From: a virus
Taxonomy: Duplodnaviria > Heunggongvirae > Uroviricota > Caudoviricetes
IMG/VR virus record: IMGVR_UViG_2617270950_000003
DNA: 17,573 bases
Reading direction: 5' to 3' (one strand)
Position 1 is the stretch's first letter. Every line of letters starts with the position of its first letter. Below are positions 2,539 through 15,672 of this stretch, piece after piece. Under the pieces are notes generated by a model. It was given only the letters and a program-made list of their open reading frames with translations. It did no database searches and was not told where the DNA came from. The position numbers and the translations under genes were made by a program.

Positions 2539-2540
2539 GT

Positions 2541-2568
2541 CCATAAGAAAGCCCCTCCGGAGAGGGGC
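2541..2568 (-). terminator. intrinsic terminator candidate (minus orientation) downstream of the tRNA cluster
   Basis: Hairpin gcccctc-cgga-gaggggc; on the minus strand it is followed by UUUCUUAU. Together with 2509-2538 this forms a bidirectional terminator pair in the tRNA-nanS intergenic region. Confidence 0.5.
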
Positions 2569-2805
2569 TGGAGAGTGGCGCTATGTGCCATTGCATGGTG
2601 CCGGGTGCCTCCCGGTGAATTCAGTACCAGCACCTGAATCCGCGATTATCCCATATACCTACTCGCTGATTGCCCCTCCGCACAGGGGGATTCACCATGC
2701 CAGTTTCTTTTAACAAACTCCCCGCAAAACAGACAACTGTCAACCGTCTGAATTGTGAGACATTTAAAAAAAAGGCCCGCAAAAGCGAGCCAGGGAAAAT
2801 AAGTG

Positions 2806-2882
2806 TGGCGCGTTGTACTGGATTCGAACCAGTGACCGATTGCTTAGAAGGCAATTGCTCTGTCCGGCTGAGCTAACAACGC
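2806..2882 (-). tRNA. argO: tRNA-Arg, anticodon UCU (argO-like)
   Basis: Manual fold of the reverse complement: GCGTTGT acceptor, GCTC/GAGC D-stem, anticodon loop CTTCTAA (TCT), GGTTCGAATCC T-loop, encoded CCA. 77 nt. Confidence 0.8.
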
Positions 2883-2895
2883 AGGGTACAGATAA

Positions 2896-2972
2896 TGGAC
2901 CGCCATCGGGGACTTGAACCCCGCGCAGCCAGCTTCGAAGGCTGGCGCTCTATCCTGATGAGCTAATGGCGG
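2896..2972 (-). tRNA. argN: tRNA-Arg, anticodon read as UCG (argN-like)
   Basis: Manual fold: acceptor CCGCCAT/ATGGCGG, D-stem GCTC/GAGC, anticodon stem CCAGC/GCTGG with loop CTTCGAA (TCG), T-arm CGGGG-TTCAAGT-CCCCG, encoded CCA. Anticodon assignment should be confirmed with tRNAscan-SE. Confidence 0.7.
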
Positions 2973-2979
2973 TATGTGA

Positions 2980-3055
2980 TGGTGGCCCTTGCTGGATTTG
3001 AACCAGCGACCTGGCGATTATGAGTCGCTCGCTCTCACCACTGAGCTAAAGGGCC
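2980..3055 (-). tRNA. ileZ: tRNA-Ile2-like, gene anticodon CAT (lysidine-modified type, ileZ-like)
   Basis: Reverse complement GGCCCTTTAGCTCAGTGGTGAGAGCGAGCGACTCATAATCGCCAGGTCGCTGGTTCAAATCCAGCAAGGGCCACCA closely resembles E. coli tRNA-Ile2 (ileX) as I recall it. Anticodon loop CTCATAA. 76 nt with CCA. Confidence 0.75.
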
Positions 3056-9853: not shown

Positions 9854-10044
9854 GGACGCACCTCCGCCGTAGTTACGTATTTAACCGGGCTACCTTTCAT
9901 TGAGATGGTTTCACACATCTCTGCCGCTTTCAGTTCCGCTGTTTTTCTGGATTTATAGCGACGGTGCCAGACAGATACATCCGTGCGAACTGATACATCG
10001 TTTCTGTATTCCGTAGTGGAGATGATGATTTCGTAACTAATCAT
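9850..10044 (-). CDS. hypothetical small protein (64 aa)
   Basis: Overlap coupling on both sides (10041-10044 and 9850-9853). No family recognised. Confidence 0.4.
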   Translation of the reverse strand: MISYEIIISTTEYRNDVSVRTDVSVWHRRYKSRKTAELKAAEMCETISMKGSPVKYVTTAEVRP

Positions 10045-10892
10045 GGGCGAACCTCCTTGTCAGAACCATTCAGCCTGGAATCAACAAGTGCAGCGCCAAA
10101 AACAGCATCACCAACACGGTCGTACAGTTTGCTAGCCAGCGGAGATTCAACGGCCTTAAGCATTGGATAAAGCTGGCTTGTCCAGATTTGATGGATTTCA
10201 CGCAAATGCAGGTATACGCCTCTGGCGTTTCGTGCGACAGCTGACATATCAGACGTATCGGCACCTGATAAACTCTTCTCCATCAGGTTAAAGGCGTTGA
10301 TGTATGCCTCTTTGAACCGGGCAGCACGTTTACCAGTGAAGCCCATGGCAAGGAACGCGAAGCCATCGCGGGTGATTTGATAGCAAGGTAGTTTGCGGCC
10401 TGATGCGTCGGTGTATTCACTTAACACAAAATTGTGTTCAGTAAATTCAGCGGAACATTCGAGGTTTCTAATTCTATCTAAAACCCGCTCATGCCGTTTA
10501 GTAAAGTAATTAGCTACTGCAAGAGATGTGGTGACAACGCGACCATTGATAATCGTGATTTCAGGGTGAGATTGGGTTGGGAGAGTAGTCATGGTGACAG
10601 CCCCTATGTTGAATTCAATGAACTCACCACCAAGGCTTTCCACGACCATATAGGTGGTGAGACGTACAGGGGTGGAAATACCGGTCAACATAGAACCCGG
10701 CCCAACCGAAATTGGCCCTGCACGCCACACCATAATTTGGGCGTAACGATGCTCATGACACGAAAAAACCGCATGAGCGCGGTTGTGCTCTATATTGAAT
10801 TTCGGGTTTCCACGCCCGGCACCCGCTTTATAAGGTGCAGAGACAGTGTAACGTCCCGAAATTGCAGAATCAATATGCTGGTGGCGGATCAT
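10041..10892 (-). CDS. Rha-family phage regulatory protein (paralog A); Rha core from internal Met at 10592, preceded by a Gly/Pro/Ser-rich extension of about 100 aa
   Basis: Rha-domain blocks IINGRVVTTSLAVANYFTKRHERVLDRIRNL and YQITRDGFAFLAMGFTGKRAARFKEAYINAFN. Whether translation starts at 10892 or 10592 is unresolved. Confidence 0.7.
   Translation of the reverse strand: MIRHQHIDSAISGRYTVSAPYKAGAGRGNPKFNIEHNRAHAVFSCHEHRYAQIMVWRAGPISVGPGSMLTGISTPVRLTTYMVVESLGGEFIEFNIGAVTMTTLPTQSHPEITIINGRVVTTSLAVANYFTKRHERVLDRIRNLECSAEFTEHNFVLSEYTDASGRKLPCYQITRDGFAFLAMGFTGKRAARFKEAYINAFNLMEKSLSGADTSDMSAVARNARGVYLHLREIHQIWTSQLYPMLKAVESPLASKLYDRVGDAVFGAALVDSRLNGSDKEVRP
10815..10876. repeat. 62-bp block near-identical to 11471-11532 (copy 1)
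   Basis: cccggcacccgctttataaggtgcagagacagtgtaacgtcccgaaattgcagaatcaatat; 61 of 62 identities with copy 2 while flanking sequence is diverged. Confidence 0.85.
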
Positions 10893-11551
10893 AGGTGCAC
10901 CTCCCGTTGATTACGACGGAACGCGGAGTGACCCTGGACGGTTTCAGCCTCATGGAATGCTTCAATACAGCTCTCGTAGTACCGCATTGTGCGCAGACTT
11001 AACCCAAGCTGAAGCATCATCAGACCATCAAGGGTGATGTAATAACCACGCAGGGAGTCACCGTAGATGTGATAAGTACCCGGTATGAAATTGCGGGTAA
11101 AAAACTCGCGTGAGCAGTTCAGATACTCGATTTTGTCGACGATGTTCTGGTGCATGCGCTTAAAGTGGCAGGCAACATGCAGGGAGAAAATAACGGCCTT
11201 GCCGTTGACAACTTCAATTTTGAGGAATGGGGAAGTTGGGACTGTAGCCATGATGGCAGCCTCCGTATGCAATGGATAACTTCCACCACCGGAGCTGCGA
11301 AACTCACTGGTGGCAGACTGAACAGGGTTCGCAGTACCGGCGCATACGGAAACCGGCGAGCCTTTCGGCTCCCCTGCCCAGCCCACCATAATTCTGGCGT
11401 GCGTGAGCGCGGACGATAAAAAAGACGCTGGCGCGTCGTATATCGCCGTATGCAATTCCGGGCTGCGACCCCCGGCACCCGCTTTATAAGGTGCGGAGAC
11501 AGTGTAACGTCCCGAAATTGCAGAATCAATATTTGGTCTTGAAATGATCAT
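10889..11551 (-). CDS. Rha-family phage regulatory protein (paralog B, more diverged), with a similar N-terminal extension
   Basis: Core from MATVPTSPFLKIEVVNGKAVIFSLHVACHFKRMHQNIVDKIEYL...YYITLDGLMMLQLGLS aligns by eye with paralog A. N-terminal IDSAISGRYTVSAPYKAGAG is identical to paralog A. ATGA overlap with paralog A. Confidence 0.6.
   Translation of the reverse strand: MIISRPNIDSAISGRYTVSAPYKAGAGGRSPELHTAIYDAPASFLSSALTHARIMVGWAGEPKGSPVSVCAGTANPVQSATSEFRSSGGGSYPLHTEAAIMATVPTSPFLKIEVVNGKAVIFSLHVACHFKRMHQNIVDKIEYLNCSREFFTRNFIPGTYHIYGDSLRGYYITLDGLMMLQLGLSLRTMRYYESCIEAFHEAETVQGHSAFRRNQREVHL
11471..11532. repeat. 62-bp block near-identical to 10815-10876 (copy 2)
   Basis: Direct comparison of the two segments; one mismatch. 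Confidence 0.85.
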
Positions 11552-12486: not shown

Positions 12487-12780
12487 ATGAAAGTTCAGGC
12501 CGTTGGTTTATTCTGGTTTCGCGATGCGATTCAGTATCATGAGCTCAAAAATATTTTTACTGATGCTGATGTGCTCTCCGACAGTTACACCGAGTGGAAA
12601 CACGACGCTGAAAAATTGATTAAGCGTGTCGAAAGAGGCGGGCAACGAGTTATTAAAGTTGAAGCGGATACAGCCGAGTTCATCGCTTGGTGTACAAGCG
12701 AAGGCATTGGAATCAATGCCGAAGGTAGAATGCAGTTCGCATCCTTTAAGGCTTACCAACAACTTCTCAGCGAACGCTAA
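12487..12780 (+). CDS. hypothetical protein (97 aa) encoded opposite to the early-right genes
   Basis: Consensus SD AAGGAGG 7 nt before ATG at 12487. Conflicts with a fully antisense minus-strand ORF (12508..12840, SD-like GGTGGTG); only one can be real. Confidence 0.4.
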   Translation: MKVQAVGLFWFRDAIQYHELKNIFTDADVLSDSYTEWKHDAEKLIKRVERGGQRVIKVEADTAEFIAWCTSEGIGINAEGRMQFASFKAYQQLLSER

Positions 12781-12850
12781 TGTGATCGGGGCAATCGAAA
12801 TGGTTGTCCCATCGTATTTAATAGTTATTTTTTCGCTCATATCACCACCA

Positions 12851-13060
12851 TCACTTCCCATCTTCCGTGTGCGCTAGGCTTGGGTGTGTATATGGAATGC
12901 TCGGATCCAAATGACAAAGAATGGCAACATCCTCCGGAACACCTCGCGTTTTCCACTTTCCAACACCTTGACTGCCACGAGGCCTTCCTTTCTTTGGGAA
13001 CCTGCGACCAATAGCGGCATTGGTTTTAAATTGAATTTTTAATATTTCATAAAGGGTCAT
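12851..13060 (-). CDS. possible Cro-position early regulator; small basic protein with an AT-hook-like KKGRPRGS segment
   Basis: Divergent from the CI-like gene across a 111-bp intergenic region, which is the cro position by synteny. No recognisable HTH and weak SD. Confidence 0.3.
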   Translation of the reverse strand: MTLYEILKIQFKTNAAIGRRFPKKGRPRGSQGVGKWKTRGVPEDVAILCHLDPSIPYTHPSLAHTEDGK

Positions 13061-13171
13061 TCTTTAGTCTCACACCAGATACTTTGTTATCCAACGATGT
13101 TAACCACAGGAATCCAAAGTATCAAGAAATTCTGTTACTTTAGTATCAACAGCCATGAGAGGAGAAGAAAA
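13061..13171. promoter_or_regulatory. divergent immunity-region control region (OR/PR/PRM-equivalent)
   Basis: Intergenic region between divergent regulator genes. Two direct AGTATCAA copies (13118-13125, 13142-13149). Strong SD GAGAGGAG before the CI-like ATG. Confidence 0.5.
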
Positions 13172-13828
13172 ATGAAGTCTTTAGGTGAACGTCTCATCAA
13201 CGCACGGCAAAAAGCTGGGTTAACACAAGATGCGTTGGCTAAAAAAGCTGGGATCACCAGAGTTGCAATCAGTAAAGCCGAGCAAGGCCTTACAAAAAGT
13301 TTCAACGGTGACACCCTTTTTAAAGTTGCAGCTGCACTGCGGTGTTCACCGCAGTGGATTCAGAACGGAGATGAAAAAGATAAGCATTGGGAAAATAATG
13401 TTAAGAGCTGCCCACAGAGAGACACAGCACACTCTTACCCTGTAATTAACTGGGTTCAGGCAGGATTATTCGCAACTTCTGGTGATGACTACAACATGTA
13501 TGATCAGGATAATTGGAGGCATTCTGTAAAATACGCTGGTGAGAGGGGGTTCTGGCTGGAAGTGCACGGAGACTCAATGACTTCGCCCGTAGGAATAACA
13601 TTTCCTGAAGGAATGTCGATCCTTGTCAACCCAGATAAAGAAGTTTTTTCAGGGTGTTACGTCATCGCCAGAAAAAAATCTACCAATGAAGCAACATTCA
13701 AAAAATATATTTCTGACATGGGAAAGGCGTTTCTAAAGCCCCTTAATCCACAATATCCAATCATAGAAATGGACAATGATTGCGAAATAGTAGGTGTTGT
13801 GGTTGATGCCAGGTGGGATATTTTCTGA
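13172..13828 (+). CDS. cI: CI-like prophage repressor (N-terminal HTH, C-terminal S24/LexA-type autopeptidase)
   Basis: 218 aa from ATG at 13172. HTH LTQDALAKKAGITRVAISKAEQG, candidate Ala-Gly cleavage site (VQAGLF), Ser nucleophile in GDSM, and downstream Lys residues. Confidence 0.85.
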   Translation: MKSLGERLINARQKAGLTQDALAKKAGITRVAISKAEQGLTKSFNGDTLFKVAAALRCSPQWIQNGDEKDKHWENNVKSCPQRDTAHSYPVINWVQAGLFATSGDDYNMYDQDNWRHSVKYAGERGFWLEVHGDSMTSPVGITFPEGMSILVNPDKEVFSGCYVIARKKSTNEATFKKYISDMGKAFLKPLNPQYPIIEMDNDCEIVGVVVDARWDIF

Positions 13829-13856
13829 CCAGACACAAAACACAAAAAGAAACCAA

Positions 13857-13927
13857 AGTATCAAAAATCACTTGCCACACCTTGATACCTTAGTTACCAT
13901 AAAACAAAGTTCGTAACTGAGGTATCA
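13857..13927. promoter_or_regulatory. operator-like GTATCA repeats between the CI-like gene and the downstream operon
   Basis: Inverted repeat AGTATCAA-N17-TTGATACC (13857-13889) plus GGTATCA at 13921-13927, immediately before ATG 13932. Same heptamer as in the cI upstream region. Confidence 0.45.
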
Positions 13928-13931
13928 TCTC

Positions 13932-14348
13932 ATGATCAATAAAGCTACAACTCTTGACTGTCTCGAAGAACTGAAAAACCTCGGCAGCCTCATTACACTA
14001 ATAGCAAAAGCAACACCTGATGCTACGCTCTCTAGCGATATAGAGTCATGCGCAGGACTGGCATGGGATATGACAAATAGCATATCCAGAAAGCTATCGT
14101 CAGCAATGCTTTTACAGAACAAAAATTCTGCAATCAACAACCGTCTTCGCACCCAACGCGAAGCCTGCGGCTTAACAACCGCCGAACTCGCCAGGCTGCT
14201 CGATCTCGATGAAGAAATTATCATCCAGTGGGAGAGCGGAGAGTGTGAACCAACTATCAGTATGCTTATCCCACTGGCAAATATTCTTGGCTGCGATCCG
14301 ATGTGGCTGTTAACTGGTAAACCAACAGGTGGGGATACTTGCGCATGA
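13932..14348 (+). CDS. hypothetical regulator (138 aa): unknown N-terminal domain plus C-terminal XRE-type HTH
   Basis: C-terminal LRTQREACGLTTAELARLLDLDEEIIIQWESGECEPTISMLIPLANILGCDPMWLLTG is HTH_XRE-like. Occupies the slot directly after cI. AT-rich codon usage. Confidence 0.6.
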   Translation: MINKATTLDCLEELKNLGSLITLIAKATPDATLSSDIESCAGLAWDMTNSISRKLSSAMLLQNKNSAINNRLRTQREACGLTTAELARLLDLDEEIIIQWESGECEPTISMLIPLANILGCDPMWLLTGKPTGGDTCA

Positions 14349-14587
14349 AAAACTGTGATGCTTACCATATTTGTCTCATTGGTGAATTGCTTGATTTCAT
14401 ACAAAAAAGCACTGCGCACAATAATAAAAATATAACATATGGTGATCTGGTAATAATTTCAGAGGATATAAAGAGCATCGCTCTTAAATTCAAGAGCGAC
14501 GCGAGTATTGATGACGCTATTTACGCTTATCTTGCGAAAATAATTGACGGATCCAAAATCCAGCCTCTGGATGAACCTCGTCAGTGA
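14345..14587 (+). CDS. hypothetical small acidic protein (80 aa), coupled to the upstream HTH gene
   Basis: ATGA start/stop overlap at 14345-14348. Very AT-rich codons. No family recognised. Confidence 0.5.
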   Translation: MKNCDAYHICLIGELLDFIQKSTAHNNKNITYGDLVIISEDIKSIALKFKSDASIDDAIYAYLAKIIDGSKIQPLDEPRQ

Positions 14588-14744
14588 AAAACTCCTTTGA
14601 TGAAGATGAGAACTGCTTCATTAACTTTACTTTATCTTCAGGTGAAACTACCTGACGAATTAATGCGGAGATAGCAACTTTGTGCCAAATTAATTCTTTT
14701 TTGAGTTCTGAAATCTCTTTTTCGAGTTGCTCTGCGTTAATCAT
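14517..14744 (-). CDS. hypothetical coiled-coil protein (75 aa), convergent with the cI-proximal operon
   Basis: Strong SD GGAGG 7 nt before ATG at 14744. Overlaps the 3' end of the 80-aa gene by about 70 nt on the opposite strand. Confidence 0.5.
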   Translation of the reverse strand: MINAEQLEKEISELKKELIWHKVAISALIRQVVSPEDKVKLMKQFSSSSKEFFTDEVHPEAGFWIRQLFSQDKRK

Positions 14745-14923
14745 TTATCCTCCATTGAGAGCTGAATTGAAAATGGGGACCAACACGCGGCTACGTGTGG
14801 TCGTGCGCCGGACACGGATAAGCATCCGGTAACTGATTATCAATCATTGCGGAAACAGTCTCAATATGAAAACACTTCTGAGACTCGCTATATAGCAGGA
14901 CATATAAGTCAGCTGAGGAAGCC
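14745..14923. promoter_or_regulatory. divergent control region (PL/OL-equivalent) with a GC-rich structured segment and a palindrome
   Basis: Intergenic between the minus 75-aa gene and the plus early-left operon. Hairpin-prone segment around 14780-14830 and inverted repeat gtctca-N15-tgagac around 14858-14884. Confidence 0.4.
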
Positions 14924-15289
14924 ATGAAAAAGTTCGAAAACATAACTGTTCTCCATGTTGATGACTTTGATTATACAAACCCGGAACTTCTCCCGGAGGT
15001 TGTAAAGGCAATAGATGTTGCCGATATAGTGATTAGAGAAAAGAGAATTGTCAAAAACAGGCTCGCATGCACTTCAGGAGCAATGACAGAAACAACCTCA
15101 CAGCAAGATAATTACGAAGGCATTTGTCTGGAGCCTGATTCATTTGCGGTAAATGTTTATCATTTATTGCATGCAACACAGGTATTACATATGTCCAGTA
15201 ATCACGAAACGAAAACACTCGGCAGCGAAATTCTGAGTTTTGCATGTGAGTATACAAAAGCTGCTGCCGAAAAAGAATTAGCGCAATAA
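14924..15289 (+). CDS. hypothetical acidic protein (121 aa), first gene of the early-left operon; not N-like
   Basis: ORF track; GAGGAAG SD-like sequence before the ATG. No Arg-rich N-terminal motif. Confidence 0.5.
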   Translation: MKKFENITVLHVDDFDYTNPELLPEVVKAIDVADIVIREKRIVKNRLACTSGAMTETTSQQDNYEGICLEPDSFAVNVYHLLHATQVLHMSSNHETKTLGSEILSFACEYTKAAAEKELAQ

Positions 15290-15367
15290 CAACAAATATG
15301 CCCTGAACGTTTATTGCGGTTTTATCGCCGGGGATTGTTACAACCTTAATCCACAGGAGGCTTTATT

Positions 15368-15481
15368 GTGACTTTTATAAAGAATATGGCATCACACAAG
15401 ACCGCCTGCCTTATTGCACAATACGGTGAAAATTACATGCATATTGCCTGCTTATTTCTGCGTAAAGCATACGGGAGATAA
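15368..15481 (+). CDS. small ORF (37 aa) not in the ORF track
   Basis: AGGAGG SD 7 nt before GTG at 15368. Stop TAA is 2 nt before the next ATG at 15484. Sequence MTFIKNMASHKTACLIAQYGENYMHIACLFLRKAYGR. Confidence 0.35.
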   Translation: MTFIKNMASHKTACLIAQYGENYMHIACLFLRKAYGR

Positions 15482-15483
15482 TA

Positions 15484-15672
15484 ATGCATCAGAAAACAGC
15501 AGAACACGAACAAACCAGAATATTGCTGACCATCAAAAACGGGAAAGTAATATTCATTCGCCATGTTCATGACGATGAACTTGTAGGAACTCTTTCAACA
15601 TTCCTGTTTATTGCAGAAAAGGCAGGATATGACGTTATTGCACCAGCAGATGAAGATGAAGATGAGGAATAA
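15484..15672 (+). CDS. hypothetical small protein (62 aa) with acidic C-terminal tail (DEDEDEE)
   Basis: ORF track; tight spacing to flanking genes. Confidence 0.5.
   Translation: MHQKTAEHEQTRILLTIKNGKVIFIRHVHDDELVGTLSTFLFIAEKAGYDVIAPADEDEDEE

Follow-up and report, generated by a model that had tools for sequence, protein, structure and literature searches.

A probable early-left control region, a backbone regulator and a swappable convergent cassette behind the repressor gene of a phiP27-like phage sequence

In phage lambda the genes beside the repressor run cI-rexA-rexB-OL-N, with rexAB placed between cI and the left operator (OL) and transcribed together with cI, and with sieB converging on N. 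In the Rac prophage sieB converges on ydaF, one of the early-left genes after racR. The product of sieB, expressed from the prophage, acts in exclusion; P22 and lambda reportedly escape their own SieB through Esc, a finding attributed to Ranade and Poteete in 1993. Lambdoid morons (the Hendrix/Juhala concept) are present/absent units of deviant GC content that bring signals resembling a promoter and a terminator of their own. The Salmonella phage BTP1 protein BstA shows that a repressor-proximal prophage defence can have self-immunity built in (bioRxiv 10.1101/2020.07.13.199331). Here we analyse positions 13829-14923 of the Caudoviricetes record IMGVR_UViG_2617270950_000003 (17,573 nt; the whole stretch is called the window), which directly follow the gene of a CI-like repressor and had originally been predicted to hold one unrecognised accessory module in the slot equivalent to rexAB. 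We found that the interval is probably not one module but three units in a row: a control region resembling OL and the leftward promoter pL, a regulator gene of the prophage backbone, and a swappable cassette that converges on it.

Positions 13000-15506 of the window are 94-95% identical to the Stx2e phage phiP27, in which the counterparts are annotated as L11 (repressor), L10 (helix-turn-helix, HTH), L09 and L08 (both hypothetical). The repressor gene cI corresponds to L11, in a 2.5-kb stretch that is 94% identical in DNA. Close relatives are found among E. coli genome prophages and among Stx1a/Stx2a phages with the same repressor and the first part of L10. The three open reading frames (ORFs) laid out in the original prediction, of 138, 80 and 75 amino acids (aa), are all present beside cI. 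The first two are indeed ATGA-coupled, the stop of the 138-aa ORF and the start of the 80-aa ORF sharing this tetranucleotide, and the 75-aa gene converges on them behind a strong Shine-Dalgarno (SD) sequence (GGAGGAT), overlapping the 80-aa ORF by 71 nt at the 3' end. The features around the repressor are:

12851-13060, minus strand: cro-like gene, with the OR-like region between it and cI
13078-13091, 13110-13123 and 13134-13147: three dyads of the region resembling the right operator (OR), between the cro-like gene and cI
13172-13828, plus strand: cI, CI-like repressor of 218 aa (HTH_3 and Peptidase_S24 by Pfam; PHROG matches)
13849-13862, 13884-13897 and 13913-13926: three dyads of the OL-like region, between cI and the 138-aa gene
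13872-13900, plus strand: pL-like promoter TTGCCA-17-TACCAT (consensus scan, 9/12), which the OL sites overlap and flank
13883-13927, plus strand: 15-bp RNA hairpin, an inverted repeat of two inverted OL sites
13932-14348, plus strand: 138-aa L10-family regulator (HTH_3 at 38.4 bits versus a cut-off of 23; phrog_4739 and phrog_4836)
14345-14587, plus strand: 80-aa ORF (phrog_23054), ATGA-coupled to the HTH gene
14517-14744, minus strand: 75-aa gene of a helical protein (phrog_20080; WP_000606214 in the NCBI prokaryotic genome annotation pipeline, PGAP), the cargo gene of the cassette

Only three copies of the 9-mer CAAAGTATC exist in the 17.5 kb, each adjoining cI; extended, the motif becomes a 14-bp dyad, GATAC-N4-GTATC, whose left half is degenerate. 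The pattern GWWWMYDWRGTATC has six matches in the window, all within the two spacers that flank cI, versus about 0.02 expected, a figure to be read in the light of the pattern having been fitted to the same six sites. The dyads are kept in homoimmune phages, one of which (L002) has the perfect palindrome GATACTTAAGTATC, and are missing from phages with a different repressor. On both sides of cI, promoter-like hexamers found by consensus scan overlap the dyads. In the heteroimmune phage L130 the same spacer holds a textbook intrinsic terminator after cI and, beyond it, the strong promoter sequence TTGACA-17-TAATAT; the repeats on either side of this promoter are L130's own operators and are found again in its OR. 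We suggest that positions 13829-13931 form an OL/pL-like control region made of three CI operators and a promoter.

Since three operators and a promoter-like site follow cI, the genes beyond them lie past OL and not in a rexAB slot. The resemblance to rexAB goes as far as accessory genes close to cI and in the same orientation as cI; rexAB itself sits between cI and OL and is transcribed with cI, whereas the genes here stand beyond the OL-like operators. The 138-aa gene follows these operators directly and, by analogy with the lambda map, takes the position of N, while the 75-aa gene takes that of sieB. As in lambda and Rac, a counter-oriented gene runs head-on into the first gene after OL/pL, with abutting or overlapping 3' ends. 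Two of the OL sites would also shape the RNA. The hairpin at 13883-13927 folds with a z-score of –3.3 (0 of 200 shuffles fold as well), its 3' arm holds the SD sequence GAGG of the 138-aa gene (13919-13922), and the predicted pL start (∼13907) falls within its loop. With GAGG in the hairpin arm and the start in the loop, RNA reading through from cI would be poorly translated and RNA begun at pL would be open.

The 138-aa protein has, as had been proposed, an unmatched N-terminal part and a C-terminal HTH (HTH_3 at residues 72-126, E 1e–9), and belongs to the XRE (Cro/C1) type by an HTH_3 score above the Pfam threshold and a five-helix fold. Its N-terminal ∼65 aa had no Pfam or PDB sequence match, while residues ∼68-130 match P22 c2/434-type domains (E 1e–6 to 1e–5). 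The AlphaFold2 (AF2) model (mean confidence, pLDDT, 84) consists of a two-helix hairpin followed by the HTH. Of the fold comparisons proposed at the outset, that for this HTH gave a clear answer: Foldseek superposed it on the P22 c2 DNA-binding domain (target-normalised TM-score 0.90, root-mean-square deviation 0.8 A), and for the N-terminal hairpin the fold search matched nothing. The likeness to P22 c2 and 434 Cro thus holds in sequence and fold, but here the HTH is C-terminal to a two-helix hairpin and is followed by no S24 or other C-terminal domain, and most relatives of the 138-aa protein have two tandem HTHs. The protein also differs from lambda N, the first pL gene being an XRE HTH protein here and not an arginine-rich antiterminator: it has no arginine-rich motif, its N-terminus is neutral to acidic, and no search was aimed at nut (boxB) sites.

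Relatives of the 138-aa protein number 156 at E <= 0.001 among 5.8 billion proteins, with lengths of 81-242 aa; those with a named source are all from E. coli except one from Salmonella. Their alignment shows several unrelated N-terminal types of ∼60-75 aa, a near-invariant first HTH and an optional second. A 218-aa tandem-HTH protein is 93% identical to the 138-aa protein and both of its HTHs end in CDPMWLLTG, so the 138-aa form looks, from its sequence, like a deletion between these repeats. In a comparison of the window (13932-14130) with L002, L003 and L130, the N-terminal type co-segregates with cI (type A with the present repressor, type B with a 229-aa cI), while the HTH region, second HTH and C-terminal tails reassort freely. 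This places a mosaic joint inside the L10 gene, at the domain boundary. Members of the family stand after cI in prophages of several immunity types; a single 230-aa one is found in 1,920 index blocks of the collection of assemblies, always after a different cI and directly followed by a 66-aa L08-like gene. Compared with phiP27, the 138-aa ORF carries 8 synonymous and 4 non-synonymous codon changes, which points to purifying selection, and its distribution marks it, as far as sequence comparison goes, as prophage backbone and not cargo. We suggest that it heads the early-left genes, kept silent by CI in the lysogen and turned on when the prophage is induced or the phage infects, and that it encodes an early transcription factor, most likely a DNA-binding dimer held by the N-terminal hairpin. 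The hairpin would belong to the immunity module and the HTH would be common across immunity types.

Beyond the cassette lies L08 (14924-15289, plus strand), whose conserved core is the C-terminal ∼66 aa; PGAP calls only a 68-aa core at this locus. In cassette-less relatives the 66-aa core directly follows the HTH gene. Its C-terminal ∼60 aa are homologous to the type B N-terminal domain of L10 (43% identity, E 1e–9), and BLASTP gave no similarity between L08 and the type A N-terminus found here. By analogy, core and regulator suggest a regulator with a small paralogous partner, as SinR and SinI: the L08 core is homologous to the N-domain of the type B regulator and, in cassette-less phages, is encoded directly after it. 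However, L08 and L10 are not homologous to SinR or SinI, and the type A N-domain is not detectably L08-like.

The part of the locus that varies between prophages starts only in the last codons of the HTH gene. In PhiR49_2 and H20-type E. coli prophages ∼158 bp replace positions 14319-14836, between flanks that are 99% identical. Among 5,426 complete E. coli genomes, 54 carry this block over at least 80% of its length. The features of this block are:

14319-14836: present/absent cassette, comprising the last 10 HTH codons, the 80-aa ORF, the 75-aa gene and its leader
14475-14502, minus strand: terminator-like hairpin (consensus scan; 12-bp stem, weak T tract)
14745-14831 (to 14836 for the stretch compared with other genomes), minus strand: conserved 5' leader of the 75-aa gene, ∼90 nt, with two predicted hairpins followed by AAUGGAGGAU and AUG
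14836-14864, minus strand: promoter-like site TTGAGA-17-GATAAT (consensus scan, 10/12)
14791-14943, minus strand: remnant of an 86-aa ORF (phrog_6104), cut by the cassette and intact where it is absent

The comparison of the region downstream of cI across prophages thus did not return the HTH gene plus the 80-aa ORF as the varying unit but the 80-aa ORF, the 75-aa gene and the leader, which on sequence comparison make up a rare and swappable accessory unit. The predicted presence of accessory cargo at a variable repressor-proximal locus was borne out, although with a different unit (14319-14836 is what varies) and in a different slot (that of N and sieB). The cassette resembles a moron in being present in some and absent from other near-identical prophages. 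Its GC content is 34% versus 49% for the window, and its candidate signals, a promoter-like site matching 10 of 12 consensus positions and a hairpin terminator-like site, come from the consensus scan only. In each of the 20 loci with sufficient flanking sequence the 75-aa gene is accompanied by an intact 80-aa ORF; the loci comprise two HTH N-terminal types.

The 75-aa gene is, on its sequence, certainly coding. It is called by PGAP and differs from phiP27 by 0/3/12 substitutions at the three codon positions; this pattern and a remote homologue together mark it as real. The protein is otherwise nearly an orphan: the homologue (P0135, 78 aa; 31% identity over 74 residues, pairwise E 5e–14) was the one real remote match of an exhaustive phmmer search, which otherwise returned the protein's own cluster and truncated fragments; a match to a repeat protein (P0133) looked spurious and was disregarded. 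P0135 is encoded on an unrelated metagenomic lambdoid contig and converges, with a 53-nt overlap, on the first gene after a repressor and a terminator. Hence the convergent-overlap architecture is conserved over large distances. With the 75-aa and 80-aa proteins, tblastn against the phage collection found phiP27 only, and the PDB profile search gave noise (Atg17 and designed coiled coils, E 0.06 or worse). In phiP27 (L001, 6518-6818) an extra T in a T-run shifts the frame to give the annotated 59-aa L09; the shift is either genuine or an error of the old sequencing. The terminator-like hairpin at 14475-14502 begins 15 nt after the 75-aa stop, inside the 80-aa ORF, and a G.U pair in it is A-U in phiP27. 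The predicted transcript start from the site at 14836-14864 is approximately the first base of the leader. In topology the gene follows sieB, its minus-strand frame overlapping the 3' end of the plus-strand pair. Its product differs: it has no Pfam or PHROG SieB match, has no hydrophobic or membrane segment as read from its sequence, and is a third of the size of SieB (∼190 aa).

The leader is far more widespread than the cassette it precedes here. It occurs in ∼970 of 5,426 complete E. coli genomes (∼18%), with up to four copies each, and in more than 120 IMG/VR contigs; among the matches listed in the genomes, nearly all lack any annotation. An exact 21-mer of it is absent from 185,579 species-representative genomes (GTDB), and K-12 Rac has none. 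An Rfam scan of the whole window (E <= 1) returned nothing in 13829-14923, the leader thus having no Rfam family, and in the searchable literature on the leader sequence, the phiP27 repressor, ydfABC and lambdoid hotspots neither cassette nor leader is described. Its predicted fold consists of two hairpins and then the ribosome-binding site (RBS). In the commoner leader type a promoter-like TTTTCA-17-TAAACT, read from the sequence, stands at the same distance. Given two different promoter-like sequences at one distance, the transcript would begin at the first hairpin.

We also observed, in K-12 Qin (L129, 5103-5118, between ydfC and dicF, minus strand), a 16-nt exact remnant of the leader core, a sequence trace which suggests that Qin once carried such a cassette.

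In 125 leader copies the 3' end is the same AATGGAGGATAAAATG, but the ORFs of 57-101 aa that come next are of at least 10 unrelated kinds. These cargos had no Pfam family beyond one threshold match to GhoS and weak sub-threshold zinc-ribbon matches; the GhoS match (21.2 versus a gathering score of 21 bits) is that of a 94-aa cargo beginning MAKFTVRIELRDSS (L021, L033 and L058). GhoS is the antitoxin endoribonuclease of the GhoT/GhoS system. On other backbones the plus-strand gene that faces the cargo starts with a conserved MEFKDLP...; since it comes after a DUF1391 gene, we regard it as YdfB-like. These genes total 52-216 aa, their C-terminal part changes with the cargo type while staying open, and they abut or overlap the cargo at the 3' ends. 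Sequence comparison suggests that the swappable unit is generally the 3' part of an early gene together with a counter-oriented cargo, set between two conserved "handles"; in this window its plus-strand half is the separate 80-aa ORF. Unlike the sieB slot of lambda, this one combines a conserved leader with cargos of at least 10 alternative kinds. Morons and BstA differ likewise in that the conserved 5' leader here is common to unrelated cargos and was not found in Rfam or the searchable literature, and the cassette proteins (cargos of 57-101 aa) are homologous neither to BstA nor to any PADLOC model. A moron or exclusion slot is of a kind already known, and the leader-tagged, cassette-swapping form appears to be undescribed in the searchable sources.

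Overall, the explanation that we favour, with moderate confidence, combines an OL/pL region, a backbone regulator and a swappable convergent cassette expressed in the lysogen. The sequence comparisons above show how the locus is built, where the operators lie, that it is mosaic, to which families its proteins belong and how the leader is distributed; the timing of expression and any role in exclusion or immunity are inferred. The 75-aa gene, with its own promoter-like site, structured leader, strong RBS and terminator-like hairpin, would oppose early-left transcription as sieB does. Its product would be made in the lysogen as that of a moron, most plausibly as a superinfection-exclusion or host-modulating factor, and convergent transcription from pL would silence it when the prophage turns lytic. 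The 80-aa ORF, being translationally coupled to the HTH gene, would be expressed only from pL as an early partner; that its product may be an Esc-like self-immunity factor is the weakest step.

Several points weigh against this account. The window has no intrinsic terminator between cI and the 138-aa gene, and read-through from the cI promoter is possible; moreover, the promoters and terminators were recognised by consensus alone. None of the three proteins matched a defence, toxin or exclusion family, and whereas SieB is a membrane protein, the 75-aa protein is small and soluble. Double changes in the leader occur in two pairs only and its copies are 93% identical, and at such identity covariation cannot confirm the fold. 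The 80-aa ORF may be untranslated, and no counterpart of it was found beside the remote 75-aa homologue P0135. The co-variation of plus-strand partner and cargo could be mere linkage between the two recombination "handles": by analogy it fits a functional pair (cf. SieB/Esc) and simple linkage equally.

Several of these points meet in a possible, though not favoured, alternative in which the 80-aa ORF is no gene, the cassette is a single-gene moron and the frame on the opposite strand is fortuitous or tolerated. The ORF is not called by PGAP, no homologue below ∼80% identity exists among the 5.8 billion proteins, and it gave no signal against YdfB-like proteins or the variable C-termini of other partners. 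Its substitutions versus phiP27 (2/5/7 by codon position) show no significant bias. The terminator hairpin of the 75-aa gene lies inside it, and it is not conserved beside P0135. Its AF2 model has three helices at moderate confidence (pLDDT 70), and Foldseek found nothing at E < 6, so that for this protein the proposed fold check was without result. On the other hand, it is the only open frame of six over 80 codons of 34% GC DNA and has the best ratio of synonymous to non-synonymous changes (6/7 versus 2-4/10-11 in the others; binomial P-value ∼0.09 for the synonymous excess). It is intact in both diverged haplotypes with its stop at the same place, its ATGA start has GGTGGGG upstream (read from the sequence), and the converging plus-strand gene elsewhere also stays open through its variable part. 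As originally described, it is AT-rich and acidic (34.5% GC versus 49% for the window; net charge ∼–3, counted from the sequence). On balance, we regard the 80-aa ORF as probably a gene.

It is unlikely, in our view, that the leader-linked cargos are lytic accessory genes for host takeover or anti-defence, with the leader timing or limiting their translation. The leader could pair the start-codon region with an upstream CAUU, in very small size and hypervariability the proteins resemble many anti-defence proteins that phages make early, and lysogen expression of the cargos is itself only inferred. But the orientation opposes every neighbouring early gene, a separate promoter-like site stands before the leader at a constant distance, as in the classic moron layout, and the position is equivalent to that of the prophage-expressed sieB.

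The originally proposed pair, the HTH gene and the 80-aa ORF as an accessory regulator-effector module co-expressed with cI in the lysogen from a rexAB-like slot, now seems improbable. An orientation shared with cI, the lack of an intrinsic terminator between the two, the ATGA coupling and an 80-aa ORF without known homologues speak for it; but three operator copies and a promoter-like site separate cI from the HTH gene, the 15-bp hairpin would bury the RBS of that gene in read-through RNA, the HTH family is widespread and mostly lacks an 80-aa partner, the mosaic boundary falls in the last HTH codons and not around the pair, and lambda rexAB lies on the cI side of OL. That the pair resembles neither RexAB nor a RelE/ParE-type toxin was confirmed: Pfam, NCBIfam and PADLOC scans agree for all three proteins, with no RexA/RexB similarity, and the PADLOC and NCBIfam models gave nothing beyond generic HTH matches.

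A toxin-antitoxin system, with the 75-aa protein as toxin against the 80-aa protein or an antisense RNA, or with the HTH protein as antitoxin for the 80-aa protein, is equally hard to credit: small convergent genes whose 71-nt 3' overlap has antisense potential and recurs in a distant relative, weak sub-threshold matches of the HTH domain to HipB/MqsA-type antitoxin models and the threshold GhoS match of one other cargo type favour it, but no toxin family or fold matched in Pfam, NCBIfam, PADLOC and PDB profiles or (for the 80-aa protein) Foldseek, neither small protein reads as hydrophobic, which makes a type I toxin unlikely, the HTH gene promoter carries CI operators and not a palindrome of its own, and the 80-aa ORF, which HTH-family members usually lack, pairs with the 75-aa gene instead.

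Returning to the favoured combination of control region, backbone regulator and convergent cassette, its consequences reach beyond this window. The annotation of phiP27-like prophages, including Stx1a- and Stx2a-converting phages, would be corrected, the gene after cI being the head of the early-left operon and not lysogenic cargo. This family of E. coli lambdoid prophages shows no N-like gene after cI, and the immunity-linked N-domain together with L08 raises the question of how early-left control works in lambdoids of this kind. The leader is a directly searchable tag of a compact locus in the sieB position, from which dozens of small prophage accessory proteins could be harvested for exclusion, toxicity and host-modulation screens; defence finders that rely on domains systematically overlook proteins this small. 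More tentatively, the leader may mark a widespread, unrecognised lambdoid hotspot of interchangeable convergent exclusion/self-immunity pairs, each a small effector made in the lysogen under the leader, with an early-expressed partner on the opposite strand, and may itself serve as their shared post-transcriptional control element. If that were true, the 75-/80-aa pair would be one family, and at least 10 further small anti-phage or host-modulating effectors would stand beside it.

Some observations concern other parts of the window. Between the cro-like and Rha genes, a 97-aa ORF (12487-12780, plus strand; phrog_4753), called by PGAP in relatives, opposes the early-right operon, and a terminator-like hairpin (12788-12810) follows its stop; it is a second counter-oriented moron-like unit. 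A 117-aa minus-strand ORF that overlaps it matched no family. On the minus strand, 10650-10838 and 11306-11494 are two tandem modules of C4 antisense RNA and IsrK RNA (Rfam, 57-80 bits). They lie within the long ORFs 10041-10892 and 10889-11551, towards the 5' ends, and precede Ant/Rha-like genes. The pair looks like a duplicated P1-type c4/ant anti-repressor control unit, and the N-terminal parts of the two ORFs are probably non-coding. Finally, at 2539-3055 (minus strand), three tRNA genes (2809-2882, 2899-2972 and 2983-3055) adjoin the small RNA STnc100 (2539-2729, 139 bits).

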